Source of the DNA: a virus
IMG/VR virus record: IMGVR_UViG_3300045988_086792
DNA: 51,914 bases
Reading direction: 5' to 3' (one strand)
In this document: positions 34,861 to 51,573 of the stretch, in pieces
How positions within the stretch are numbered: position 1 is the stretch's first letter
Layout: each line of letters starts with the position of its first letter
Program-made: the position numbers and the translations under genes
Notes under the pieces: generated by a model
The model's database searches: none
What the model was told of the DNA's origin: nothing
The model's input: the letters and a program-made list of their open reading frames with translations, nothing else

Positions 34861-35038
34861 CCGGAAAAAAGGTCTGGGTGAACCACAACACACCCACCGT
34901 GCGACCGGAAACGTGGGGACGCAGATGGTCGCCCCGGTCATCCGACAGCCGGGGGTCCTACCTACTGAGGACTGAAAGAATACATAGGGCGGCCCGCATG
35001 GGCAGAGGGCGGTGTCCTGTCAACATCGCCTTTTCTAT

Positions 35039-35102
35039 GGAGTATGCAGGCGCATCCGGGGGAGTAGCCCCGGAACTGGTTCGATTCCAGAGTGCTCCAC
35101 CA
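35039..35102 (+). ncRNA. tRNA-like minihelix B (acceptor stem, hairpin, T-arm, ACCA end)
   Basis: GGAGTAT pairs with GTGCTCC (two G-U pairs). Hairpin CCGGGG/CCCCGG. T-arm CTGG-TTCGATT-CCAG. Ends A-CCA. Preceded by hairpin 35008-35030 and TTTTCTAT. Not a canonical cloverleaf. Confidence 0.45.
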
Positions 35103-35140
35103 GATCGAATATTCACCCGAAAGTAGAAAGGATGCTCGAA

Positions 35141-35479
35141 ATGACCAAAGAAGAAGCTATCAAGATGTTCCTTGATGATGGAGCGGCTGAACTGTCCGTA
35201 AAAGCTGAACAGGGGGGGCACGTCACGACGGAACTTCGCGGAGAAGTTCATAAACTGGGCTGGATGGTAGCGAAAGCAGCCAACGGGATTTTCTCCGAAA
35301 TCAAAGATGCGCGTATCGTGGAAGCGCTGGACCTTGCGATTACGAAGACCATTCACGAGATGGCGGCGCACCGCATCGCGCAGATCAAGAAAACGGACAC
35401 GCCTTTTGACCTGACTGTGGAGATGAGTGCTGTTCCGTTCAACGTGAACGACATCATTAAAACGATTCTCGGAAAGTAA
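35141..35479 (+). CDS. Hypothetical protein
   Basis: 112 aa from ATG 35141 (35132 is also possible). SD AAAGGA. Confidence 0.5.
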   Translation: MTKEEAIKMFLDDGAAELSVKAEQGGHVTTELRGEVHKLGWMVAKAANGIFSEIKDARIVEALDLAITKTIHEMAAHRIAQIKKTDTPFDLTVEMSAVPFNVNDIIKTILGK

Positions 35480-35490
35480 GGAGAAGCAGT

Positions 35491-35748
35491 ATGGTAAAAG
35501 CGGTAATCCATGTGGAACTCACGGAAGAGAACGGGAAGCAAACCGTCAGCGTCAAGGCTGATGGCGACGGGCTGGACCTGCTGGACATGACGGCTCAGAT
35601 CGCGGCAGACATTATTGCGATGGGCGCGGATGACAAAGACCTCATTGAACGCAGGAAGCAATATTTCTTCTTGGCTACGGAGAACGACCTGAAAAATGAA
35701 AGCAATCTTGGTGACAGACCCGGACTGGTCGAGCCGGACAACAAGTGA
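35491..35748 (+). CDS. Hypothetical acidic protein
   Basis: 85 aa. SD AAGGAGAAG. Confidence 0.5.
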   Translation: MVKAVIHVELTEENGKQTVSVKADGDGLDLLDMTAQIAADIIAMGADDKDLIERRKQYFFLATENDLKNESNLGDRPGLVEPDNK

Positions 35749-36226
35749 TTGGAGCGACTGTGCTGACCGGAATATCTGGGATGACCTGTATGACATGATG
35801 TCTGCGATTCAAGAAAAGTGGAAAACACTTGAAGAGATGCTAAAAGAAATCGCGGAAATTACAGACTGTTCCAAAATCGAAAGTCTTGCCAGACTTTGGG
35901 AAGCGGAAGAAGTAAAGGAAGCAACGAAAAAATTCTTTGAGGAACATCCACTGCTTCTTCGCCGTTGCCGCAGATCGCGAGAAGTTCGGTGCAGGGTGCG
36001 GCTGAACACAACACCACTTGGTACAGCAACCTACTTATACAAAGCAAAAGAAATGAAGAACCTCGCAAGAAGCACTAAGACCAATACCGCCCGCAAGGGC
36101 AGTATAAAGAGTGAACAGTGCAAACACACGTTCGAGATAACCAAAGCGCACTGTGCGCCGTGCGCTGGTTATAACGCGAACTGCAAGGACTACGAAAAAC
36201 GAAATGCTGCTGATACAAAATTGTAG
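35696..36226 (+). CDS. Hypothetical protein (start uncertain)
   Basis: 176 aa ORF overlapping the upstream gene by 53 nt. ATG 35795 is an alternative start. C-terminal Cys cluster CKHT...CAPCAGYNANC. Confidence 0.45.
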   Translation: MKAILVTDPDWSSRTTSDWSDCADRNIWDDLYDMMSAIQEKWKTLEEMLKEIAEITDCSKIESLARLWEAEEVKEATKKFFEEHPLLLRRCRRSREVRCRVRLNTTPLGTATYLYKAKEMKNLARSTKTNTARKGSIKSEQCKHTFEITKAHCAPCAGYNANCKDYEKRNAADTKL

Positions 36227-36237
36227 TTCTTGAAGAA

Positions 36238-36299
36238 GCCGCCCGGTAGAAAATCGGCGGACAAGCGTTGTCTTGTGTTGTAACCGGGCGGTTTTATAT
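36238..36299 (+). terminator. Terminator-like long hairpin plus TTTTATAT
   Basis: CCGCCCGGT (36239-47) pairs with ACCGGGCGG (36283-91), followed by TTTTATAT. Confidence 0.5.
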
Positions 36300-36368
36300 G
36301 GCGCGGGGCGGATGGACTACTGGTAACGGTCCGCTCGCCGGAAGCGGGGTCAAACCCCGTCCGTGCCG
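36300..36368 (+). ncRNA. tRNA-like minihelix A
   Basis: GGCGCGG pairs with CCGTGCC (one G-U). T-arm-like GCGGG-GTCAAAC-CCCGT. Internal stem GCGGA/TCCGC. No D-arm or anticodon-arm geometry. Confidence 0.35.
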
Positions 36369-36622
36369 CTTGTTGCATGGGCATCATGGAAGCTGGTGCG
36401 GTTTTGCGTATATTTTACGCACCAACAGGGCGAAAGAGTGCCGTATGGCAGCGCTCCTCCTAACGCCGCAAGCCGGTGGAAAACCGTGCTGCTCCTAGCC
36501 AAGTCGCACCCAACATGACGGCAACGGAAGCCGAAAGGGTGCGCCGCCGCGTGAGCGAAGAAACGCCTTGTCCAACTCGCCCAAGACAAAGGCGAGAGGT
36601 CTGGTTTGGTAGACTGGACCGC

Positions 36623-36657
36623 CCGCCGCGTTACTCTCTGACGCGGCGGCTTTATAT
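36623..36657 (+). terminator. Terminator-like hairpin plus CTTTATAT
   Basis: CCGCCGCG-(11 nt)-CGCGGCGG followed by CTTTATAT. Confidence 0.5.
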
Positions 36658-36731
36658 GCGGGTGCATAAGGCTGTTGCCTGTCTATGATTCCCCATCAAC
36701 AGGCAAGCCGGTTCGATACCGGCCACCCGTG
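36658..36731 (+). ncRNA. tRNA-like minihelix C
   Basis: 73 nt plus a discriminator. GCGGGTG pairs with CACCCGT. Perfect T-arm GCCGG-TTCGATA-CCGGC. An 8-bp hairpin TTGCCTGT/ACAGGCAA replaces the anticodon arm. Confidence 0.45.
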
Positions 36732-36757
36732 CAAGAAAATAAAAAGGAGACGGAAAA

Positions 36758-37081
36758 ATGATTGCTCCGATGCCAGAAGAATTTCAGGAAAGAAATGACA
36801 TTGCCTTCATCGTCACCGCAGCAAAATACGCTCCCGTTGAATGCACATGGGGCTTTATAAGGGCACACCATGCGGAGCTTTCGAATGACTGTTTAGAGTC
36901 ACTTGCAGGAATATTTAACGGAAAGGCTGAAATGCCAGATGCAAAATATTACCCGCTGGCGGAGCAGGGTTCTTGGAAGTACGAAGAAACTCTGCGTCTT
37001 ATAGAAGAAAAGAAAAACTGGCTCTTCATGGCAAAGAACATAAGGGAACTCTTGGAAAAAAGACGAAAGGCTGGGAAATAA
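36758..37081 (+). CDS. Hypothetical protein
   Basis: 107 aa. SD AAAAGGAGA. Confidence 0.55.
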   Translation: MIAPMPEEFQERNDIAFIVTAAKYAPVECTWGFIRAHHAELSNDCLESLAGIFNGKAEMPDAKYYPLAEQGSWKYEETLRLIEEKKNWLFMAKNIRELLEKRRKAGK

Positions 37082-37083
37082 AT

Positions 37084-38711
37084 GTGATTCACCTTGGAGA
37101 TATTACGAAAATCTGCGGCGACCAGATAGAACCGGTGAATTGCATCACATTCGGAAGCCCTTGCCAAGACCTTTCCATTGCTGGCCGCAGAGCTGGTCTT
37201 GCAGGTGAACGGTCGGGACTTTTCATGGAAGCGATTCGGATCATAAAAGAAATGAGGGCAAAAACGAATGGAATGTATCCAACTTTCGCTATTTGGGAGA
37301 ATGTCCCCGGAGCTTTCAGCTCTAACAGCGGAGAAGATTTCCGCGCAGTGCTGGAAGAACTTGCCCGCGTGGAACAACCAGACGCTTCAATTCCTCGACT
37401 TGCGGGGGGGGGCAGCGTTGGAAACGAGCAGGGACAATCATCGGAGACGGATGGAGTTTGGCTTGGCGACAGATTGATGCTCAATATTGGGGAGTCCCCC
37501 AGCGCCGCAAAAGAATCGCTCTTGTCGTGGATTTTGCAGGTGGACGCGCCGGAGAAATATTATTTGAGCGCGAGAGCCTGCCGGGGCATCCTGACCAGAG
37601 CATCCCGACGTGGAAAGAAGCTGCCGAAACTGCTGGAAACTGCGTTGCTGGAAATGATCGAGTGGTGGGAGAACGAAGTTTCTGCATCAGCGGAAACACC
37701 GTTGACCGAACCACAAACCAAAATGGAACAGGCGTGAAAGAAAATGCTGCTTTTACGGTGAATACGGTTGACCGTCATGCGGTGGCCTACACGTTGAAAA
37801 TCCGTTCGGGGTGCGCCGGAGGCGGAAAGGGCGCATTGGTGCAGACAGAAAAAGTCGGGACGCTATCGACACTCCAAGATCAGACTCTTTTTCAACCGGT
37901 CGTTTTTGACGCACGGGGCAACGGAGATGGGAAGATAGCTCCGACCATTACCGGGGACCATGAAAGCAGAATCACGGATTACACCGCCGTTGCAGTTGAT
38001 TTGTATAACGGCGCTGTGACTGGCGACAAAACTGCATCCATTACTTGCAGGAGCATCGGGTCACATTCTGGGCCGCAGGTGGTGGAGCAAAAAACTTTTG
38101 CAGAACAATCATACAGCAGTTTCAAAATGGAAGAAACGAGCGGAACAATCAAAGGCTGCGGTGGAGGCACTGGATATAGTGGAGAATGCTTAATTGCAGA
38201 AAAGAATTGCCTGACTCCGTGGGATTCGCAAGGACGAAGAGTCTATGACGAAAACGGAAAATTTCCATCTCTTCAGGCACGAGAAAAAGCCGGGGGAAAT
38301 CAGCAAACAGTGTTGACAGAAATAGCGCCGATGGAGAAGATGATTCGATGGATCGTGCGCAGGTTGACCCCGACAGAATGTGAACGTCTGCAAGGATACC
38401 CGGATGGCTGGACGGACATCGGAGAATGGACGGACACCAAAGGGAAAAGGCATAAACCAGCAGACACTCCGCGCTATAAGGCGCTGGGCAACAGCATTGC
38501 GCTTCCGCAATGGTTCTGGATTGCCCAGAAAATGAAACAATATCTTCCAGCAGGTGCAACGCTGGGCAGTCTGTTTGACGGCATCGGCGGTTTTCCTCTA
38601 GTGTGGGAGACTACATACGGGAAAGGGACTGCCCGGTGGGCATCGGAAATCGAAGAATTTCCTATTGCCGTGACAAAGAAATGGTTTGCAGATGAGGAAT
38701 CGTTGAAATGA
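37084..38711 (+). CDS. DNA (cytosine-5) methyltransferase, circularly permuted motif order, out of frame at a G9 tract
   Basis: The first frame has GSPCQ (IV) and WENVPG (VI). After G9 the 37458 frame has AQYWGVPQRRKR (VIII), RRLTPTECERLQGYPDGW (IX), YKALGNS (X), then SLFDGIGGF (I) and WASEIEEF (II) at the C-terminus. One extra G gives a single frame of about 540 codons. The start is uncertain (GTG 37084 or ATG 36973). Confidence 0.75.
37404..37412 (+). repeat. Poly-G tract (G9) inside the C5-methyltransferase gene
   Basis: CTTGC-GGGGGGGGG-CAGC. The frame changes exactly here. G10 or G7 would be in frame. Confidence 0.9.
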
Positions 38712-39244
38712 GAAAAAATGTACTGCCGAAAGTATCAGTGACTTTGAGCTGCATTGCCCTTGGACTGGCGATTTTTAACGGAGCCGCCAAAGATACACGG
38801 ATTCAGCAGCTCGAACAGGACCGGGATATTTACAAGAGCCGATTCCAGAATTGGTCGGAACGTGCAATGCAGGACGAAGAAACGATAGAACGTCTCCAAG
38901 AAGAAGTTCTGCCGGAGGGGATGACTGCTGAGTATGCGGGAGAATTTCTCTGCACGTCGTATTGCACGGAGAAATATCCGCATATCTGCGGAACTGGAAC
39001 CGGAATTACAGCCAGCGGCGTTCCGGTAACGGCAGACCTGACGGTGGCGGCAGATCAAGGCGTGTTCCCGTTTGGAACGATTCTGTATATTGAGGGCATC
39101 GGCATTCGGGTGGTTCAAGACCGGGGCGCAGATATTCAAGGACGGCACCTTGACGTTGCAGTTGCCGGAACACATGAGGATGCACTGAACTGGGATGGTT
39201 ATGGAGAACATCGGGTGTGGATTGTTAAAGAGGAAAACAAATGA
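38708..39244 (+). CDS. Membrane-anchored 3D-domain protein (cell-wall hydrolase-like)
   Basis: N-terminal TM, a coiled coil, then TSYCTE...GTGTGITASGVPV...TVAADQGVFPFGTILYIEG...VQDRGADIQG..LDV is a 3D/MltA-like barrel pattern. Confidence 0.6.
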   Translation: MRKNVLPKVSVTLSCIALGLAIFNGAAKDTRIQQLEQDRDIYKSRFQNWSERAMQDEETIERLQEEVLPEGMTAEYAGEFLCTSYCTEKYPHICGTGTGITASGVPVTADLTVAADQGVFPFGTILYIEGIGIRVVQDRGADIQGRHLDVAVAGTHEDALNWDGYGEHRVWIVKEENK

Positions 39245-39543
39245 GCACTTTTGATAAAATGCTGGAAGATATTCTTGCCCAATACCGGCGCATAGGGTTT
39301 CAGACACAAGTTTGGAGACAAAAAGAGAATGAGGAAGTATTTGTAACGCTGAGACTGGGACGGGTTAAAGCCAGTATGATAATTTCCATGAATGAACAGG
39401 AAAATTTTCACAGGCTATGTGATTCGCAGAGTCAAAAAGAATGGTTGGAAAGTATGACAAAGCAGCTTGAATGCAAGATTACAGAGTATTATGCAAGTAG
39501 CGTGGAGATACGCTATGCGAGAATGCAGGAGGATGGAGAATGA
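39241..39543 (+). CDS. Hypothetical protein
   Basis: 100 aa with coupled start and stop. Confidence 0.5.
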   Translation: MSTFDKMLEDILAQYRRIGFQTQVWRQKENEEVFVTLRLGRVKASMIISMNEQENFHRLCDSQSQKEWLESMTKQLECKITEYYASSVEIRYARMQEDGE

Positions 39544-40104
39544 AATTGCCCGACAAGAAATATTCCGTGATCTACGCCGATCCACCGTGGAGCTACCGCC
39601 AGCATGGAACCGGGCCGAAAAGTCGGGGGAATGCGGCACAGCACTATCACACGATGACGACAGAAGACATCTGCGCGCTACCCATTCGCCAGCTTGCGGG
39701 GGGGGGGGCAAGGATGTGTGCTGTTCATGTGGGCGACATTTCCGCAAGTGGCCGATGCGCTCCGAGTTATGGAAGCGTGGGGCTTTACATACAAAACAGC
39801 GGCTTTCGTCTGGGTGAAGAAAAACCGGAAAAGCAACACTCCATTTTGGGGTATGGGCGCATATACCAGAGCAAACGCGGAAATCTGCTTACTTGGTGTG
39901 ACACCGGATTTCAGACCGGCAGCGCAGATCAAGAGCCATGCAGTGCATCAAATTATCGAAGCACCAATTATGGCTCATAGCGTAAAGCCAGATGAAACCC
40001 GCCGCAGGATTGTTCAGCTACTTGGAGATGTTCCCAGAATAGAGCTGTTTGCTCGTCAATGTGTGCCCGGATGGGATGCTTGGGGCGACGAGATAACAGA
40101 GTGA
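39540..40104 (+). CDS. N6-adenine DNA methyltransferase, MT-A70-like, out of frame at a G10 tract
   Basis: YSVIYADPPWSY (DPPW) lies before the tract. CVLFMWATFPQVADALRVMEAWGFTYKTAAFVWVK follows it in the +1 frame. Removing one G gives a single frame of about 187 codons. Confidence 0.75.
39698..39707 (+). repeat. Poly-G tract (G10) inside the MT-A70-like methyltransferase gene
   Basis: CTTGC-GGGGGGGGGG-CAAGG, the same flanks as the G9 tract. G9 would be in frame. Confidence 0.9.
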
Positions 40105-40116
40105 ATCTAGCAAAGA

Positions 40117-40145
40117 GCCGCCCGCGCGGCGGTTTCTTTTTATAT
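40117..40145 (+). terminator. Terminator after the MT-A70-like gene
   Basis: GCCGC-CCGC-GCGGC(GG) followed by TTTCTTTTTATAT. Confidence 0.55.
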
Positions 40146-40187
40146 GAGCATGGGGCAGGCCCCGCCCGGTTCAAGTCCGGAGATGCT
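40146..40187 (+). ncRNA. tRNA-like minihelix D (shortest copy)
   Basis: AGCAT pairs with ATGCT. Hairpin GGGG-CAGG-CCCC. T-arm CCGG-TTCAAGT-CCGG. Confidence 0.35.
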
Positions 40188-40219
40188 AAACGAAAAATAA
40201 AGGAAAGCGGTGAAATAAA

Positions 40220-40366
40220 ATGGAAGCTCAAATTGTAGAGACAATTATGATGTGGGTTGGTGCGGCGTATTTGATATGTGTCGCGGTGGCGCTGGTTATC
40301 CTTGTGTTCGGAATGGTAATCGGTGCTATTGCGGAAAGCGTGGAAAATCTTAGGAAGCAGTGGTGA
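40220..40366 (+). CDS. Small membrane protein
   Basis: 48 aa: MEAQIVETIMMWVGAAYLICVAVALVILVFGMVIGAIAESVENLRKQW. Its stop abuts the next start. Confidence 0.45.
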   Translation: MEAQIVETIMMWVGAAYLICVAVALVILVFGMVIGAIAESVENLRKQW

Positions 40367-46580: not shown

Positions 46581-46850
46581 TTAGACCTGCTCGAAGTGCG
46601 AAATGATGCGCCGGGACAGCGCAAAGGCAATGGCGGGAACATCATCGTCCGTTTCGCTGACGGCTTTGATCGCTTCGGCGATTCGGGCCAGATCATCCAC
46701 TGTGATGCCGCCCGGTTTGCGGCTGGACGTGTCCGCGTCGGCCAGAATGCGGTCATATTCTTCACAATCGCAGCGGGTGCAGTAGTCGTTGGCAATGCAG
46801 GCGTAACGTGCGCCCTCAGCGTCAAGAATGCGGGTTTCCTTGAGTTTCAT
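46581..46850 (-). CDS. Hypothetical Cys-containing protein (island gene b)
   Basis: 89 aa. CIANDYCTRCDC. SD GGAGG. Confidence 0.55.
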   Translation of the reverse strand: MKLKETRILDAEGARYACIANDYCTRCDCEEYDRILADADTSSRKPGGITVDDLARIAEAIKAVSETDDDVPAIAFALSRRIISHFEQV

Positions 46851-47011
46851 GTAAATACCTCCAAAGTGATGTGCATTTGCTCGTCCCGGTAGGGATTCGA
46901 GTTTTTAGATTTGCCGGTCTGGGTATATAGATACCGGGGCTGGCGGCGGGTGTTGCCCTTGCGGGCTGGGATGGGGCTGCTTTACGGTGCAACCCCGTCA
47001 GAGTATCCGTT
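46851..47011 (-). repeat. Structured leader repeat R1
   Basis: Core at 46968-47010 (plus strand GGGATGGGGCTGC-TTTACGGT-GCAACCCCGT...AGTATCC), with compensatory changes relative to R2-R5. Shares the CCCGGTAGGG...GCCCTTGCGGGCTGGG block with R2. Confidence 0.65.
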
Positions 47012-47923
47012 TTACTGCTGGCCGTCCAGAACCTCCATGACGCGGTGAGCGGCATACTTACCATTGTCGTTGAGCTGGCGCTGCCAAGCTCCCTGCGACG
47101 GGGCCCATTTGAAACCGTTCCGCTTGAGAAGCGTTCTGGTTTCATCATCGGGCTTGCCGTCGAAAAGAAACTGGACACGCATTGCTTCTGTATTCTCCCG
47201 GTAGGTGTAGCCGTCGTGCTCATCTTCCACAGGCTGTGCAGCTTTGGCCGCTTCGAGCTGGGCAATGCGTTCCTTTACTCGCTTGATGGTCGCATTGCTG
47301 TTTTGCAGCTCATAGGACGGGAAAAGACAGCCGTAGACCGAAAGCGGGGAACCGCTGGCGAAAGCATGGCCGTTTTCAAGCCAGTTTCGGGTCTTTTCCG
47401 TGATGCCGGGGCAATCGTCAAGTGTTTTGTGCTTGCGGTAGTAGGCATTCGCGTCTTTCATGGTCTGGTGTGCGGTTTGGAGCTGGTCGAGCTTGGCGTG
47501 GAGATAATCCAGCACTTCGGGATCATCAGACTTGACCGCGAACGTGTGCGCCCGCTTGAGCATCTGCAAATAGTGGTCAGCCTTGCGGAAATTCTCCCGG
47601 TTCGCGTCCCACGCTGCTACCTGCTTCTCTTTCTTGTGAACAGGGAAGTTTGCAGGGCCGCAGATGAGCACAGACGGGCAGCGGGTCCCAATCTCGTTTT
47701 CGCGGTTGATTGCTTCGGCCAGAACGGCACAGTACCGGTTGTACAGCCATTCGGCCCGCTCCCGCTGGTCTGCGGTGGCGCACTTGGGCTTGACCTGCTC
47801 AAGAATTGCGGCAGCCTTGGCGCATTGGGCGTTGTAGCTGGCGGTGGCGCTGCCCTCCACATAGTCAGAGAAAGAAGAAAGTTCTTTCGCAATGCGGGCG
47901 GCGGATTCGTTGATAATAGCCAT
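47012..47923 (-). CDS. DUF3560-like protein (island gene c)
   Basis: 303 aa from ATG 47923. C-terminus RVQFLFDGKPDDETRTLLKRNGFKWAPSQGAWQRQL is typical of DUF3560 proteins of plasmids and ICEs. Confidence 0.6.
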   Translation of the reverse strand: MAIINESAARIAKELSSFSDYVEGSATASYNAQCAKAAAILEQVKPKCATADQRERAEWLYNRYCAVLAEAINRENEIGTRCPSVLICGPANFPVHKKEKQVAAWDANRENFRKADHYLQMLKRAHTFAVKSDDPEVLDYLHAKLDQLQTAHQTMKDANAYYRKHKTLDDCPGITEKTRNWLENGHAFASGSPLSVYGCLFPSYELQNSNATIKRVKERIAQLEAAKAAQPVEDEHDGYTYRENTEAMRVQFLFDGKPDDETRTLLKRNGFKWAPSQGAWQRQLNDNGKYAAHRVMEVLDGQQ

Positions 47924-48065
47924 GATAAAAGCCTCCAATATTCAGTTCTCAAAATGCGTTCCGCTTTCCCCGGTAGGGGTCCGCGTTTTCGTGCTGCCCT
48001 TGCGGGCTGGGGCGGGGTCGCTTTACGGTGCGGCCCTGCTGAGGTATCCGGGGCGGTTACTGCCG
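47924..48065 (-). repeat. Structured leader repeat R2
   Basis: Core at 48009-48052 (GCGGGGTCGC-TTTACGGT-GCGGCCCTGC, then TGAGGTATCCGG). Box TATTCAGTTCTCAAA at 47939-53 next to the SD. Confidence 0.8.
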
Positions 48066-48578
48066 CTAAAGAATGGAACTGATCCATGTAGAGGGGTCGG
48101 AGTAGTCAACCAACTTGGCGTAATGTTTGCATTGAACAAGGCTGTACGCATACTGCATGGTGTAGGAGCCGGTGTAAAATTCGCGGCTGCAAAACTCTTC
48201 GACGTTGTGACGGGTGTGCCATGCAAGCGGCGGCAGGACGTTCAAGGCGTCGTCGAACTGCTGTTCGGTGATCTCCTGCATGGGGTCGGAGAGCAGGCGC
48301 TCCCGCTGGGCGTTCAGAAAGTCGCCGTAGGTCATGGTGGAGAATGTGCGGGCCTTTGCTGCTTCAAGGCATTCCGTCCAATACTCTTTCCGGTCGTCAT
48401 ACCTGCCAGAGTTCAGAATATTTTCGTACCGGCGGACATCATCGGCGGCGCTGTCCTGAGCGGCTTTCAAGACCTCTTCCGGGGTGCGGGGGCCGCGCCA
48501 GCTCGACGCGGTGAAATCGTAGAGGGTGCAGGTGAATGTATCCACCACGACAAGCTCCATTTTCTCTTGTTCAGTCAT
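48066..48578 (-). CDS. Hypothetical protein (island gene d)
   Basis: 170 aa from ATG 48578 (SD AAAGGAG). The upstream in-frame extension is the type-2 repeat, not coding. Confidence 0.55.
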   Translation of the reverse strand: MTEQEKMELVVVDTFTCTLYDFTASSWRGPRTPEEVLKAAQDSAADDVRRYENILNSGRYDDRKEYWTECLEAAKARTFSTMTYGDFLNAQRERLLSDPMQEITEQQFDDALNVLPPLAWHTRHNVEEFCSREFYTGSYTMQYAYSLVQCKHYAKLVDYSDPSTWISSIL

Positions 48579-48606
48579 GTTGCAAAACTCCTTTCGTGGG
48601 CTGTAA

Positions 48607-48679
48607 CCCATGAGCGCCCGCCCCGGCGGGGGCGGCTGGGCTTGCACCAGCGGCGGCGGGATGCCGTCGGCCTTGCGGG
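48607..48679 (-). repeat. Type-2 intergenic repeat, copy 1
   Basis: About 73 nt, near-identical to 51416-51489 (one 1-2 nt indel in a hairpin loop and one substitution). Contains the hairpin CCGCCCC-loop-GGGGCGG. Confidence 0.85.
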
Positions 48680-49264
48680 TCATTCGGAAAACATCTTTTT
48701 GCAGAGCGCTTCTACCTCTTCAGTGGGCTTGATAGGGCACATGACCATTGAAATGGTCGGATCGCTGGCACAGACGGCGTACACCGGCGCATAGCCGGAC
48801 GCTTTGCCGTAGTAGATGAATTGTGCCGGGTTTACCATGCTGTCATAGATGACGTTCACCAAGATGGGCGCGGGGCCGACGTGAAAAAGCCTTGCAAGAC
48901 CGCTTTTCTTCTTGCCGGTGGGGATGTCCTGCAAAAACGGGGTGCGCTGTACAGTCTTTTCCTTGCAGGCGGCGCTTTTGAAGATGTCCACCAGATCGGG
49001 GGCGTGTTCGTCCACCTCAAAACCGTACTGGGCGGAAACGATGGTCACGCCGTCGGCGGGGCACTCGCGGAGCGTTACGGGCTGGATGATGTCAGGGTAG
49101 AGCATCGCAGGGAGCTTGAACGCGGTGTGCGGGGTCATGATGTAAACCAGATCGCCCCGGCGGGTGACGCGGATGCCGCGCTGATCCTTGGCCTGCTCCT
49201 TGAGGTGGGATTGAATCGCCTTGATGTTCAGGCCGAAAAGGGTAAAATCGTTAGAAAGTTTCAT
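48680..49264 (-). CDS. Hypothetical protein (island gene e)
   Basis: 194 aa. SD AGGAGG. Confidence 0.6.
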   Translation of the reverse strand: MKLSNDFTLFGLNIKAIQSHLKEQAKDQRGIRVTRRGDLVYIMTPHTAFKLPAMLYPDIIQPVTLRECPADGVTIVSAQYGFEVDEHAPDLVDIFKSAACKEKTVQRTPFLQDIPTGKKKSGLARLFHVGPAPILVNVIYDSMVNPAQFIYYGKASGYAPVYAVCASDPTISMVMCPIKPTEEVEALCKKMFSE

Positions 49265-49365
49265 GATATGGTCCTCCTGTTATTCAGTTTTCAAATGGTC
49301 CCGGCGGTGTGCCGGGTGTGGGGCGGGGCCGCTTTTCTGGGTGCGGCCCTGCTGGGGTATCCCAT
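49265..49365 (-). repeat. Structured leader repeat R3
   Basis: Core at 49320-49363. Hairpin CCCGGCGGTGTGCCGGG at 49300-16. Box TATTCAGTTTTCAAA at 49281-95. Confidence 0.8.
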
Positions 49366-50205
49366 TCAGCAGAAAGAAATCTGCTCACAGTATGCCGGGG
49401 CGCTGTCTGCGCTGGGCGCGGGGTCTGCTTTGGGCTGGGGCTTTGCTTCGGGTTCCGGCGCGGGAGCAGGTGCGGCGGCTTGTGGGGCTGTCTCTGCGGC
49501 TTTCCGGGTTTCGGTAGCCTTGCGCCACTTTGCCAGCGCTTTCGCTTGGGCGGGGCGGTCCTCTTCGGACACGGCCATAAATTCGTGCATCGCTTTCCGC
49601 TCTGCTCTCTTGAGATCGGCCGCGCTGGGCGCTGCTTTCTGCTTGGGGGCCGGGGCAGGCGGTTCGGCGGGTTTCGGCTCACTCTGGGGCTTGTCCTGCT
49701 GGGCGGCAGCCTTTGCGGCTTTGCGCTGGTCGGCCAGCATTTTGTTATAGGCCCGGATTTCGTCGAGACTCTGAAACCGTCCGGCGGGCTTGGGCTGCTG
49801 CTTCTCGACCTGCCCACGGTGGAACAGGTGAGCTTTTGCCAGATAGTAATAGCCTTTATCCTGTTCGGCGGCGGCTTTGGTCAGCTCGTCAGCATCCGGC
49901 GCGGGCTGCTTCTTCTTGTCGTTGAACTTCCACAGTTCGCAGGTGATCGCGGCTTTTTCGCCGCGCTTGACGGTCAAGCCGTCCCTGTGCCACTCTGCCC
50001 AAGTGTGAAATAGGCCAGCACACAACAGGGATTCAGCGCTTTCGATGGGGTCCGGGGTGTTGCCGTTGTCATCGGGAACAAGTTCCAGACCGGCGGCGAT
50101 GCCCTGCACCTGTTCGGCGGTATAGAACCGGCTCACCAGATCGTGACGCTGGGCGGAATCGTAGTTGCTGCAAACTTCGTTGAAGATGATTTGCTCGTTG
50201 GTCAT
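49366..50205 (-). CDS. Protein with weak ArdC-N-like (ssDNA-binding, antirestriction-type) N-terminus and Ala/Pro/Lys-rich tail (island gene f)
   Basis: 279 aa. FHTWAEWHRDGLTVKRGEKA resembles the W..G..V.KGEKG motif of ArdC N-domains. The C-terminal half is low-complexity. Confidence 0.35.
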   Translation of the reverse strand: MTNEQIIFNEVCSNYDSAQRHDLVSRFYTAEQVQGIAAGLELVPDDNGNTPDPIESAESLLCAGLFHTWAEWHRDGLTVKRGEKAAITCELWKFNDKKKQPAPDADELTKAAAEQDKGYYYLAKAHLFHRGQVEKQQPKPAGRFQSLDEIRAYNKMLADQRKAAKAAAQQDKPQSEPKPAEPPAPAPKQKAAPSAADLKRAERKAMHEFMAVSEEDRPAQAKALAKWRKATETRKAAETAPQAAAPAPAPEPEAKPQPKADPAPSADSAPAYCEQISFC

Positions 50206-50304
50206 GGTAAAACCTCCTGTATTCAGTTCTCAAATTGTCCCGGCGGTGTGCCGGGTGTGGGGCGGGGTCGCTTTATCCGGTGCGGCCCTGCTAAGGCATC
50301 CGGG
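50206..50304 (-). repeat. Structured leader repeat R4
   Basis: Core at 50259-50304. Hairpin CCCGGCGGTGTGCCGGG at 50239-55. Box TATTCAGTTCTCAAA at 50220-34. Confidence 0.8.
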
Positions 50305-50502
50305 TCAATGATATTTCTTCTTCAGCCGCTCGACCGCTGCGGACGCTTCGCGGTGGGTGTCACAGTGGCAGCTTTCGTAAACGATGAAAGCGGACATTGT
50401 TACACCGGGGCAGCCGGTCGGGTTTGGCTCTCCGCCTTTGTGGGCATACCCGGCGGAAACTGTGAAACCGCCGCGGCTGGAGGGGGTGATTTTGTACTCC
50501 AT
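50305..50502 (-). CDS. Small hypothetical protein (island gene g)
   Basis: 65 aa. SD AAAGGAG. Confidence 0.5.
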   Translation of the reverse strand: MEYKITPSSRGGFTVSAGYAHKGGEPNPTGCPGVTMSAFIVYESCHCDTHREASAAVERLKKKYH

Positions 50503-50520
50503 GCGGTGCGCTCCTTTCGG

Positions 50521-50892
50521 TCAGTCCTCTTCATCGGGGCAGCAGCTCCAAAGAACGTCGGCAAAATAGTCATCGTCGAAGTCGTCCGGCGTTCCGTTGC
50601 TGTTCATGATGAGGATGCAGCGTTGACCCACGGCGGGCAGGTCGTCGCGGCGGCTGATCTCTGCAAGTGCATCAGCGCAGATGATCCAGCGTTCCCCGTC
50701 GTCGTCGGTGATCCAGTAAACAAGATCGTCGTCAGCGGTAAAGACACGCTCAACCTCTGCCCCGGCGATGTACAGACCGAACGCGCCGGGGGTGCGGTTG
50801 ACATTGGCGGCGCTGGCTTTCGGGGTAGAACCTGCCAGCAGGGCGGCGGACAGCGCCAGCGCGGCGGCTGTGGTGGTGATTTTCTTCTTCAT
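50521..50892 (-). CDS. Secreted acidic protein (island gene h)
   Basis: 123 aa. Sec signal MKKKITTTAAALALSAALLAGSTPKASA|AN. SD AAAGGAGAAG. Confidence 0.6.
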   Translation of the reverse strand: MKKKITTTAAALALSAALLAGSTPKASAANVNRTPGAFGLYIAGAEVERVFTADDDLVYWITDDDGERWIICADALAEISRRDDLPAVGQRCILIMNSNGTPDDFDDDYFADVLWSCCPDEED

Positions 50893-51006
50893 GGCTGCTT
50901 CTCCTTTCGGGTTGTGGGTTTGCGTTCGGATGATCTCCCGGCTGTTGTCGGGGTAGTGGGACGGGGTCGCTTTACGGTGCGGCCCTGCTGAGGTGTCCGG
51001 CGGTGG
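50893..51006 (-). repeat. Structured leader repeat R5
   Basis: Core at 50958-51003 (ACGGGGTCGC-TTTACGGT-GCGGCCCTGC, then TGAGGTGTCCGG). Confidence 0.75.
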
Positions 51007-51192
51007 TCATTCAAGCGCCGCCAGTGCGGCGGTTAGACCTGCTTCAAAAAGTTTTTCGTTCTCTTCGTCGGTTTTGCTCAGATCGTTGGAGTAGTTGCAG
51101 GCGGGCCACAGCGGGCAGTTGCACGGCCCGCGCTGCGTCCAGTTCCGGCGGCAAAACTCTTGCTCAATCCGCTTTTCGGTTTCGGCTGTCAT
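51007..51192 (-). CDS. Small Cys-rich protein (island gene i)
   Basis: 61 aa. CRRNWTQRGPCNCPLWPAC. SD AAAGGAGA. Confidence 0.5.
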   Translation of the reverse strand: MTAETEKRIEQEFCRRNWTQRGPCNCPLWPACNYSNDLSKTDEENEKLFEAGLTAALAALE

Positions 51193-51415
51193 GTTCTGTG
51201 TCTCCTTTCGCTGCTTTGAATTTTCCCGGCGGTGTGCCGGGGGTGCTTGTTGAGCCGGATTTTAGCCGGTCCTTTCTGCCCCGTCAAGGCCCCGTTTTCC
51301 GTTCCCCTTGTCCCCCCTACGGGGGACAGGGGAAGAAAATTTGCACCAAAAAACGCTTGATGTTTTGGCGATTTTCACGGCGCGGGGGAGTATAGAGGGG
51401 GTATAGGAGTAAAAC
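51193..51415 (-). repeat. Leader region R6 (partial member of the repeat family plus a long hairpin)
   Basis: Hairpin CCCGGCGGTGTGCCGGG at 51224-40. A 12-bp-stem hairpin CCCCTTGTCCCCC/GGGGGACAGGGG at about 51305-35. It lacks the R1-R5 core. Confidence 0.5.
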
Positions 51416-51489
51416 CCCATGAGCGCCCGCCCCGGCTTGGGGCGGCTGGGCTTGCACCAGCGGCGGTGGGATGCCGTCGGCCTTGCGGG
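51416..51489 (-). repeat. Type-2 intergenic repeat, copy 2
   Basis: See 48607-48679. Confidence 0.85.
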
Positions 51490-51573
51490 GCGGGCTTGCT
51501 TTCACGTCCTTTCTGTGGTAAAATGGCTTACAAGATGGACCGTCGAAAATTCATCTTGCAGCCTGTCACCTGC

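Follow-up and report, generated by a model that had tools for sequence, protein, structure and literature searches.

Structures that resemble transfer RNAs (tRNAs) yet serve as processing signals for the transcripts around them are an established principle, known from organelles and from a few eukaryotic long non-coding RNAs (lncRNAs). In MALAT1 and MEN-beta, a single cut by RNase P makes both the upstream 3' end and the 5' end of mascRNA, which gains or carries CCA. In plant mitochondria, the tRNA-like processing signals are the t-elements, which RNase P and RNase Z cleave, thereby fixing where the upstream RNA ends and where the downstream one starts (Forner et al., 2007, PMC1920247). Bacterial RNase P likewise processes non-tRNA substrates, among them precursors of transfer-messenger RNA (tmRNA) and the signal recognition particle RNA (PMC10731613). 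Here we describe four elements, A to D, that mimic the acceptor/T-arm half of tRNA, each directly downstream of a terminator-type hairpin, in 51,914 nucleotides (nt) of bacteriophage DNA (IMG/VR record IMGVR_UViG_3300045988_086792; the whole stretch is referred to as the window). The four elements are genuine, selected plus-strand RNA structures and not products of chance; we propose, tentatively, that they are processing signals punctuating the early transcript, two of them (C and D) flanking a structured RNA, here called X.

The window comes from a Faecalibacterium phage, a temperate gut phage whose DNA is ~73% identical to that of FP_Toutatis (NC_047915) and Lelie (PP479942). All four modules lie on the plus strand of its early region, which encodes small proteins of unknown function, DNA methyltransferases and a 3D-domain protein, and they occupy the same positions in Toutatis, Lelie and ~80 contigs gathered by two DNA-pattern scans of IMG/VR; a search for relatives through single neighbouring proteins did less well, returning only a near-identical contig. 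Loci are labelled by L-numbers, L001 being Toutatis and L146 and L128 diverged relatives. Neither GenBank record, for Toutatis or for Lelie, carries any annotation at the locus comprising C, X and D, and the feature tables hold nothing at the gaps that contain A and B.

Each module consists of a GC hairpin, a U-rich single-stranded leader of ~7–9 nt ending in U, and a tRNA-like helix that starts with G and encloses two internal hairpins, the second one resembling a T arm (Table 1); the leader consensus across families is UUUAUAU followed by the G. A preliminary description had singled out these four combinations of hairpin, U-tract and G-started minihelix, and both the sequence and the folds bear it out. 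The hairpins before D and B are called terminator-like by a terminator scanner, while those before A and C, with loops beyond the scanner limit, fit an intrinsic terminator (GC stem-loop and U tract) by eye. In every family the closing stem stacks on the T-like stem to give ~12 layers, made up of 7 pairs, a mismatch and 4 pairs in subfamily A1, 6, a mismatch and 5 in A2–A4, 7 and 5 in D, and 7 and 5 or 6 in C. The T loop UUCRANN is conserved in A1, B and D, and the same three carry an invariant AGG or GG in the linker or loop that would face it, placed like G18–G19 opposite the T loop of tRNA. The U at −1 and G at +1 pointed out in the preliminary description are present in all families and relatives examined, save that one D variant (L128) has A at +1, paired to U. 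The canonical-looking T arms that it ascribed to all four copies hold for A, B and D but not for C, which has a 6-base-pair (bp) stem with a variable 5-nt loop, and the encoded A-CCA, although real, belongs to the first copy, A, and not to B.

Table 1. Coordinates of the features discussed; positions refer to the window unless a locus is named.
Feature	Position	Strand	Description
Short hairpin	34989-35003	+	GCGGCCCGCAUGGG(C); stem GCCC/GGGC, 4-nt loop; upstream of module A terminator
Module A terminator-type hairpin	35005-35038	+	GGCG..CGCC core, leader UUUUCUAU; read from the sequence
tRNA-like element A	35039-35102	+	7-bp closing stem GGAGUAU/GUGCUCC, 9-nt linker with AGG, 7-bp hairpin (CCGGGG..CCCCGG), T arm CUGG-UUCGAUU-CCAG, ACCA
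Subfamily A1			acceptor 5' strand GGAGUAU; 3' tail ACCA
Subfamily A2			acceptor 5' strand GGUGCG; 3' tail C/UCCA
Subfamily A3			acceptor 5' strand GGUACG; 3' tail GCCA
Subfamily A4			acceptor 5' strand GGCGCG; 3' tail UCCA
Conserved leader motif CGAAnAUUyAC	35104-35117	+	between element A and the next ribosome-binding site
Module C hairpin	36239-36299	+	9-bp stem CCGCCCGGU/ACCGGGCGG around a 35-nt insert; leader UUUUAUAU
tRNA-like element C	36300-36368	+	7-bp closing stem GGCGCGG/CCGUGCC, variable long hairpin, 4-nt linker, 6-bp GC stem with 5-nt loop, discriminator G, no CCA
RNA X	36369-36622	+	conserved, structured, non-coding; between elements C and D
Module D hairpin	36623-36657	+	CCGCCGCG..CGCGGCGG, leader CUUUAUAU; called terminator-like; also the 3' end of X
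tRNA-like element D	36658-36731	+	7-bp closing stem GCGGGUG/CACCCGU, 10-nt D-loop-like linker with invariant GG, 8-bp hairpin with C-rich loop (GAUUCCCCAU), T arm GCCGG-UUCGAUA-CCGGC (5-bp stem), discriminator G
Module B terminator hairpin	40115-40145	+	GAGCCGCC..GGCGGUUU, long U tract UUUCUUUUUAUAU; called terminator-like
tRNA-like element B (mini)	40146-40192	+	imperfect 6-layer closing helix, short hairpin with invariant AGG loop, 4-bp T stem with loop UUCAAGU, tail AACG
RAGATH-5	46960-47010, 48001-48051, 49312-49364, 50251-50303, 50950-51000	-	Rfam, above gathering score
Twister-sister	48601-48683, 51410-51493	-	Rfam, above gathering score
tRNA-Pro(GGG)-related loci	L037 8063-8140		also L006, L011, L017, L020, L036; partial copies in L005, L028, L044

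Several lines of evidence distinguish the elements from chance structures. Folded as single sequences and compared with shuffles, A (minimum free energy −28.8 kcal/mol), C and D are significantly stable, with z-scores of −2.7, −3.6 and −3.8, whereas B, whose closing stem in the window has just 5 bp, falls short on its own (z −0.7). A strict scan of the 52 kb, which required a perfect 7/7 closing stem with G at +1 and U at −1 around a UUCRANN loop whose own stem had 4 bp or more, returned three loci, namely A, D and a weak, G.U-rich match in a coding region at 46896, against a mean of 0.055 loci in 200 Markov shuffles. Besides the four elements, tRNA-like loci at 46830-46914 and 49898-49991, with weak G.U-rich stems partly or wholly inside dense minus-strand open reading frames (ORFs), were treated as chance. 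A covariance model built from relatives of module D alone and run on both strands of the whole window ranked C directly after D itself (24 bits, E 0.001), followed by A (19 bits, E 0.016), so that the recurrent architecture is real and not an artefact of matching by eye. Applied to the relatives, the same model recovered modules A, B (L137 and L146, E ~0.012) and C and, with scores in the same range, true tRNA-Pro genes of the host, which speaks without bias for the likeness to tRNA.

Conservation and covariation in related phages, which had been set beforehand as a test, were found, with compensatory changes in A, C and D; B is conserved, with weak covariation. Among 19 distinct sequences of element D, 96% of alignment cells pair, compared with 33–53% when the partners are slid (33–58% in this control for C and D together), eight pairs have changed on both sides and none of 500 shuffles reaches the observed values. 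Its acceptor occurs in six variants, all of which pair (GCGGGUG/CACCCGU, GCGGGUG/CAUCCGC, GCGGACG/CGUCCGU, GUGGGUG/CACCCAC, GUGGGCG/CGCCCAC and ACGGGUG/CACCCGU), and in L146 compensation extends over the acceptor, the middle hairpin (UUUAUCUC/GAGAUAAA) and the T stem (GUUGG/CCAAC) alike. For element C, 97.5% of cells are paired, six pairs show double changes and none of 500 shuffles attains the covariation score; the acceptor of L146 is again compensated (GACGCGG/CCGCGUC), and the middle hairpin ranges from 5 to ~12 bp, its sequence fully changed and its pairing retained. Element A falls into four subfamilies whose acceptor stems differ and yet always pair through compensation, with pair 3:70 being A3-U70 in A1 and U-A or C-G in A2–A4; an encoded NCCA is retained in all four, the exception being a CACA variant in ~10 loci. 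The core of element B is near-invariant across 15 distinct relatives while its flanks vary, and covariation is sparse, L146 carrying a compensated GAGCAA/UUGCCC. The family consensus (G1-C72, tail ACCG and a conserved A.C mismatch) is more tRNA-like than the copy in the window, which is a degenerate member of its own family.

The stems of the upstream hairpins covary too. In module A the stem occurs as GGCGGC..GCCGCC or GGCGGU..ACCGCC in relatives, always with the U-rich leader of ~7–9 nt directly after it, and in module C the relatives have a simple, covarying hairpin (GACACCCCGC/GCGGGGUGUC, GCAGCCC/GGGCUGC) followed by UUUUAURU. Four of the ten pairs in the module D hairpin show double changes; its loop (36634-36642) conserves CUCUCU, and most relatives have only a weak U run ahead of D (GGGUUCUGAUAU). 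The base of the module B stem covaries as well (GGAGCC/GGCUCC, GCAGCC/GGCUGC), and the B and C hairpins share GAGCCGCC..GGCGGCU and UUUUAURUG. The G.U pairs of the elements are compatible with plus-strand RNA only, which indicates selection at the RNA level. What varies across families is the identity of acceptor pairs, the discriminator base and the middle hairpin of A and C, the freedom of the latter in length and sequence being expected if the top half of tRNA alone matters. A conserved shape combined with variable acceptor identity is what one would expect if the elements were recognized by enzymes that respond to the shape of tRNA, such as RNase P, RNase Z and the CCA-adding enzyme, and not by an aminoacyl-tRNA synthetase or the ribosome.

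The elements are neither tRNAs nor tmRNAs. They share with canonical tRNA a 7-bp acceptor-like stem, the T loop (A1, B and D), G at +1 and, in A, the NCCA end, but they measure 43–74 nt and lack the D arm, the anticodon arm and the anticodon loop, one variable hairpin taking the place of both arms. As the preliminary description had it, none is a cloverleaf: ARAGORN found no tRNA gene in the window and, in 46 related loci, host tRNA-Pro alone. Among 4227 Rfam covariance models, none matched any of the four elements or X at the gathering score, in the window or in relatives, and matches at E<=10 were at chance level; the only signal from the tRNA clan aligns element A with tRNA-Sec across acceptor, T arm and a single hairpin and, at 22.6 bits, lies below the cutoff of 47. 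Compared with the top half of tRNA alone (a 7-bp acceptor on a 5-bp T stem, UUCRANN and NCCA), D is complete apart from the CCA, A1 conforms with a 4-bp T stem plus mismatch and ACCA, B conforms in part, and C departs from it in its variable loop. The likeness to the tRNA-like domain of tmRNA noted at the outset is apt for A and D: the acceptor stem, the T arm, an unpaired analogue of the D loop and a helix leaving at the site of the anticodon stem are shared, and the 3' half of A1 fits the 3'-end pattern of tmRNA and tRNA-Ala (GGUUCGAUUCCnGnnUGCUCCACCA), ending in ACCA. It does not extend to identity, given that neither ARAGORN in tmRNA mode, in the window and related loci, nor Rfam detects a tmRNA; the phage elements have no mRNA-like domain, tag ORF or pseudoknots, a short loop closes the helix, and G3.U70 is found in none of A1–A4.

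The anatomy is instead that of t-elements and mascRNA, an intergenic, covarying non-tRNA structure that keeps the acceptor/T-arm geometry. Like the elements described here, t-elements are intergenic and tRNA-like without being functional tRNAs, and they retain acceptor- and T-arm-like features; they would be the closest functional analogue of the mechanism proposed below. They differ in being organellar, in showing no sequence homology to the phage elements and in having had their cleavage mapped experimentally, whereas the elements of this bacteriophage are coupled to a terminator-type hairpin and known from sequence. In MALAT1, too, the tRNA-like element lies directly downstream of a structure that protects the 3' end, but mascRNA forms an almost complete cloverleaf, and the protecting structure is a triple helix of a eukaryotic nuclear lncRNA where the phage has a GC hairpin. 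In its upstream half, a GC-rich hairpin with a U-rich run, each module is like a Rho-independent terminator, from which the modules differ by the conserved loop of the D hairpin and by the fusion of all four, at a distance of 7–9 nt, to a tRNA-like element. In the literature searched we found no report of conserved, terminator-fused mimics of the tRNA top half in bacteriophage operons. What appears to be new is therefore not the principle but the phage setting, the existence of four non-homologous families, the fixed fusion to a terminator hairpin, and the pair of elements flanking what may be a novel large RNA.

The placement of the modules is equally regular. Within the plus-strand early operon there are four strong intergenic sites with a hairpin and a U-tract, each with an element directly after it, whereas the terminator at the operon end (46024) is followed by none. 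Elements A, D and B end 27–38 nt before the next start codon, just ahead of the ribosome-binding site; C is followed by a non-coding RNA and no gene. The genes after A, D and B show no BLASTP similarity between the window (35141-35479, 36758-37081 and 40220-40366) and Toutatis (L001 2497-2844, 4634-4834 and 9022-9207), and across loci there are at least five unrelated groups of genes after A and about five after D. Since the modules are homologous while the genes that follow them differ, they persist at cassette boundaries whatever genes they separate. The UAUAU of the leader was considered as a promoter; it drew no promoter-like call and its spacing to +1 is wrong.

We propose that the elements are cis-acting processing signals for host RNase P and the enzymes of tRNA 3'-end maturation that punctuate the polycistronic early transcript at cassette boundaries, a tentative reading to which we assign a probability of about 0.45. 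Host RNase P would recognize the minihelix and its elbow mimic and cut between U(−1) and G(+1), leaving an upstream RNA that ends in a protective hairpin and U tract, with the 3' end that termination at that site would give, and a downstream RNA that starts with a base-paired 5' end. The usual distance from the stem of an intrinsic terminator to the RNA 3' end is ~7–9 nt, and the leaders have this length, so that a cut at this position would reproduce the terminated end. In a variant of the scheme, 3' tRNA-processing enzymes would also free the tRNA-like piece, through RNase Z-type cleavage in C, D and B, while exonuclease trimming to the encoded CCA would yield the 3' end of A. Acting as a pair, modules C and D would cut out the 290-nt structured RNA that comprises X. 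If such cleavage takes place, it would account for identical ends on the terminated and the read-through early transcripts of a temperate gut phage, for the insulation of interchangeable gene cassettes from one another at the level of RNA and for the release of the large structured RNA; the elements would then provide RNase P, RNase Z and the CCA-adding enzyme with minimal substrates of natural origin, from a gut genus that is abundant and poorly tractable, and a new setting for tRNA-like processing signals.

Several considerations weigh against this reading. Punctuation by RNase P and CCA enzymes fits the anatomy of the elements best and is plausible, but cleavage is entirely an inference. 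Efficient termination at the hairpins would mean that the elements are rarely transcribed, and the model needs read-through or antitermination. A stable stem-loop near the cleavage site can slow RNase P ~10-fold (PMC10731613). C has no real T loop, and B has the conserved A.C mismatch and one or two unpaired bases between its stems, which would make both poor canonical substrates. The C-rich loop of D and the near-invariance of B represent more constraint than a pure cleavage signal would call for, hinting at extra or trans functions, and the encoded CCA of A is unnecessary for a mere cut site.

These last features are what a trans-acting role would account for, in which the released small RNAs would act on host factors recognizing the CCA end or top half of tRNA, by binding, titrating or decoying them, candidates being binders of the SmpB/EF-Tu type, CCA-modifying or acceptor-cleaving defence toxins and tRNA-modifying enzymes, or in which the C-rich loop of D pairs with mRNAs. 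The retention of NCCA in all four A subfamilies, the C-rich loop in every D variant, the near-invariant B sequence and the position in an early region next to DNA methyltransferases, the kind of surroundings typical of anti-defence functions, are all consistent with it, as is the tRNA-Ala/tmRNA pattern in the 3' half of A1, except that A3-U70 stands there in place of G3.U70. Without G3.U70, a tRNA-Ala- or tmRNA-like acceptor such as A1 would not be chargeable by alanyl-tRNA synthetase. We nevertheless regard a trans-acting role as unlikely: the four families differ in sequence and CCA occurs in A alone; the discriminator of A (A, C/U, G or U) and its acceptor identity change with the subfamily, so that no single code for protein recognition is conserved; anticodon nucleases cannot be decoyed by a structure that has no anticodon arm; and a decoy would not explain why, at each gene boundary, the element is strictly coupled to a hairpin and its U-leader. 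Placement would also suit uncleaved structures of the 5' untranslated region, acting as stabilizers against 5'-to-3' decay or as regulators of translation, their tRNA likeness being incidental or recruiting a tRNA-binding regulator. Structured 5' ends are known stabilizers in Firmicutes, and the short distance of A, D and B from the following start codons and the conserved leader motif after A are in line with such a function. It is decidedly improbable, however, given that no promoter-like site lies between hairpin and element, so that a 5' end there still needs a cut, that no gene follows C, that the interchangeability of the downstream genes argues against gene-specific regulation, and that the T-loop consensus, NCCA and U(−1)/G(+1) go unexplained.

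The location of the modules at junctions where relatives swap flanking genes, and the sequence shared by the B and C hairpins, which suggests duplication, raise the prospect of decayed phage tRNA genes or of sequences that recombination maintains at cassette boundaries, neither having an RNA function today. Relics, however, would not hold their pairing through double substitutions, as in the six acceptor variants of D and the T stem and middle hairpin of L146, nor would they show 96–97% pairing in varying cells against 33–58% with slid partners or strand-specific G.U pairs, and we consider this very improbable. Least credible, and largely refuted, is the suggestion made in the preliminary description, there for its CCA-bearing copy, that the element is a phage attachment site (attP) core copying the 3' end of a host tRNA or tmRNA gene. 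Element A does end in ACCA, with its last 23 nt fitting a pattern common to tRNA-Ala and tmRNA genes, and in a Ruminococcus contig the 3' end of a tRNA-Ala is repeated in the way typical of integrated elements; but a scan for the A 3' end in 185,579 species genomes gave 76 matches, of which the ten loci read were tRNA-Ala and tmRNA genes and att-like repeats of other taxa, none with the actual sequence of A, and no Faecalibacterium appeared in the record titles. Furthermore, the 5' strand of A covaries with the 3' strand over the four subfamilies, which an att core would not require, and related prophages adjoin a host tRNA-Pro(GGG), other relatives carrying just its 3' 46 nt or so elsewhere. 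This tRNA-Pro 3' fragment is probably the real att core of the phage group. The host gene beside related prophages has its own promoter; the window itself carries no copy. The Ruminococcus contig, from a metagenome-assembled genome (CAYZOV010000011.1; L050 and L051), carries an intact tRNA-Ala(CGC) whose 3' end recurs there as a separate stretch of 23 nt, which looks like the attL/attR pair of an unrelated integrated element.

RNA X, together with the module D hairpin, spans 36369-36657, ~290 nt. In ten diverse sequences, 30 of its 57 predicted pairs show compensatory changes, and its G.U pairs suit the plus strand alone. Among its features are a long-range helix (GGA/UCC), the hairpin before D with its conserved CUCUCU loop and a further hairpin whose loop (GAGCGNAGAA) is invariant; all-against-all column covariation was too noisy to define tertiary pairs. 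X has no Rfam match beyond chance level and appears to be a new RNA class, flanked by C and D as non-coding RNAs are flanked by tRNAs in engineered or natural tRNA arrays. Motifs reminiscent by eye of RNase P RNA or a tmRNA body were pursued and rejected: the Rfam models of both gave nothing even at E<=10 with a 541-nt query, and each of the two flanking elements has a covarying closing stem of its own. Nor is X a minus-strand gene, for the 105-amino-acid antisense ORF at 36350-36667 is inconsistent in length and start in relatives and missing in some. Pyrimidine-rich seed loops of Firmicutes small RNAs pair with Shine-Dalgarno sequences. Such loops are resembled by the CUCUCU loop of the D hairpin and by the C-rich loop of element D (36684-36697), whose motif GAUYCCCCCA is shared by all variants, the diverged L146 and L128 among them. 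Toutatis encodes, with one small gene between it and C-X-D downstream, gp11 (L001 3379-3945), an HD-domain protein annotated as a YhaM-like 3'-5' exoribonuclease; no HD domain was seen in the ten window ORFs scanned against Pfam, with no dedicated search for a gp11 homologue in the window.

Another operon of the same phage, on the minus strand, contains seven ribozyme-type Rfam matches above the gathering score (46960-51493), two of twister-sister and five of RAGATH-5. In the two stretches inspected, these motifs lie between genes, without a terminator hairpin ahead of them; the relative L007 has two RAGATH-5 copies, and in the early region of 11 loci no ribozyme takes the place of an element, a substitution that would have indicated equivalent functions. 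The presence of seven motifs of self-cleaving type in a second operon makes RNA-level punctuation of transcripts plausible for this phage, and the elements offer a parallel, open to testing, to the self-cleaving ribozymes whose abundance in phage genomes is unexplained. A broader picture, in which the phage has two punctuation systems, tRNA mimics and twister-sister/RAGATH-5 ribozymes, while C and D excise X and A, once matured, acts in trans as a stable CCA-ending mimic of a tRNA/tmRNA acceptor on a host tRNA-binding factor or defence, is doubtful as a whole.

Around module A, two more conserved sequences were observed. The leader motif behind the element is kept in A1–A3 and replaced by CCGAAUAUAAAAC in A4; it persists though the genes downstream belong to at least five BLASTP-unrelated groups, whose products may be a fast-evolving family, as they share a loose pattern (..G..DL......I...V). 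Ahead of the module, the block GCGGCCCGCATGGG around the short hairpin is invariant in A1, A2 and A4 while its flanks diverge, and in the A3 locus L010 it has one substitution (GCAGCCCGCATGGG). This hairpin lies just before the first terminator of the early operon, in what we take, speculatively, to be the position of a lambda-type boxB/nut site.

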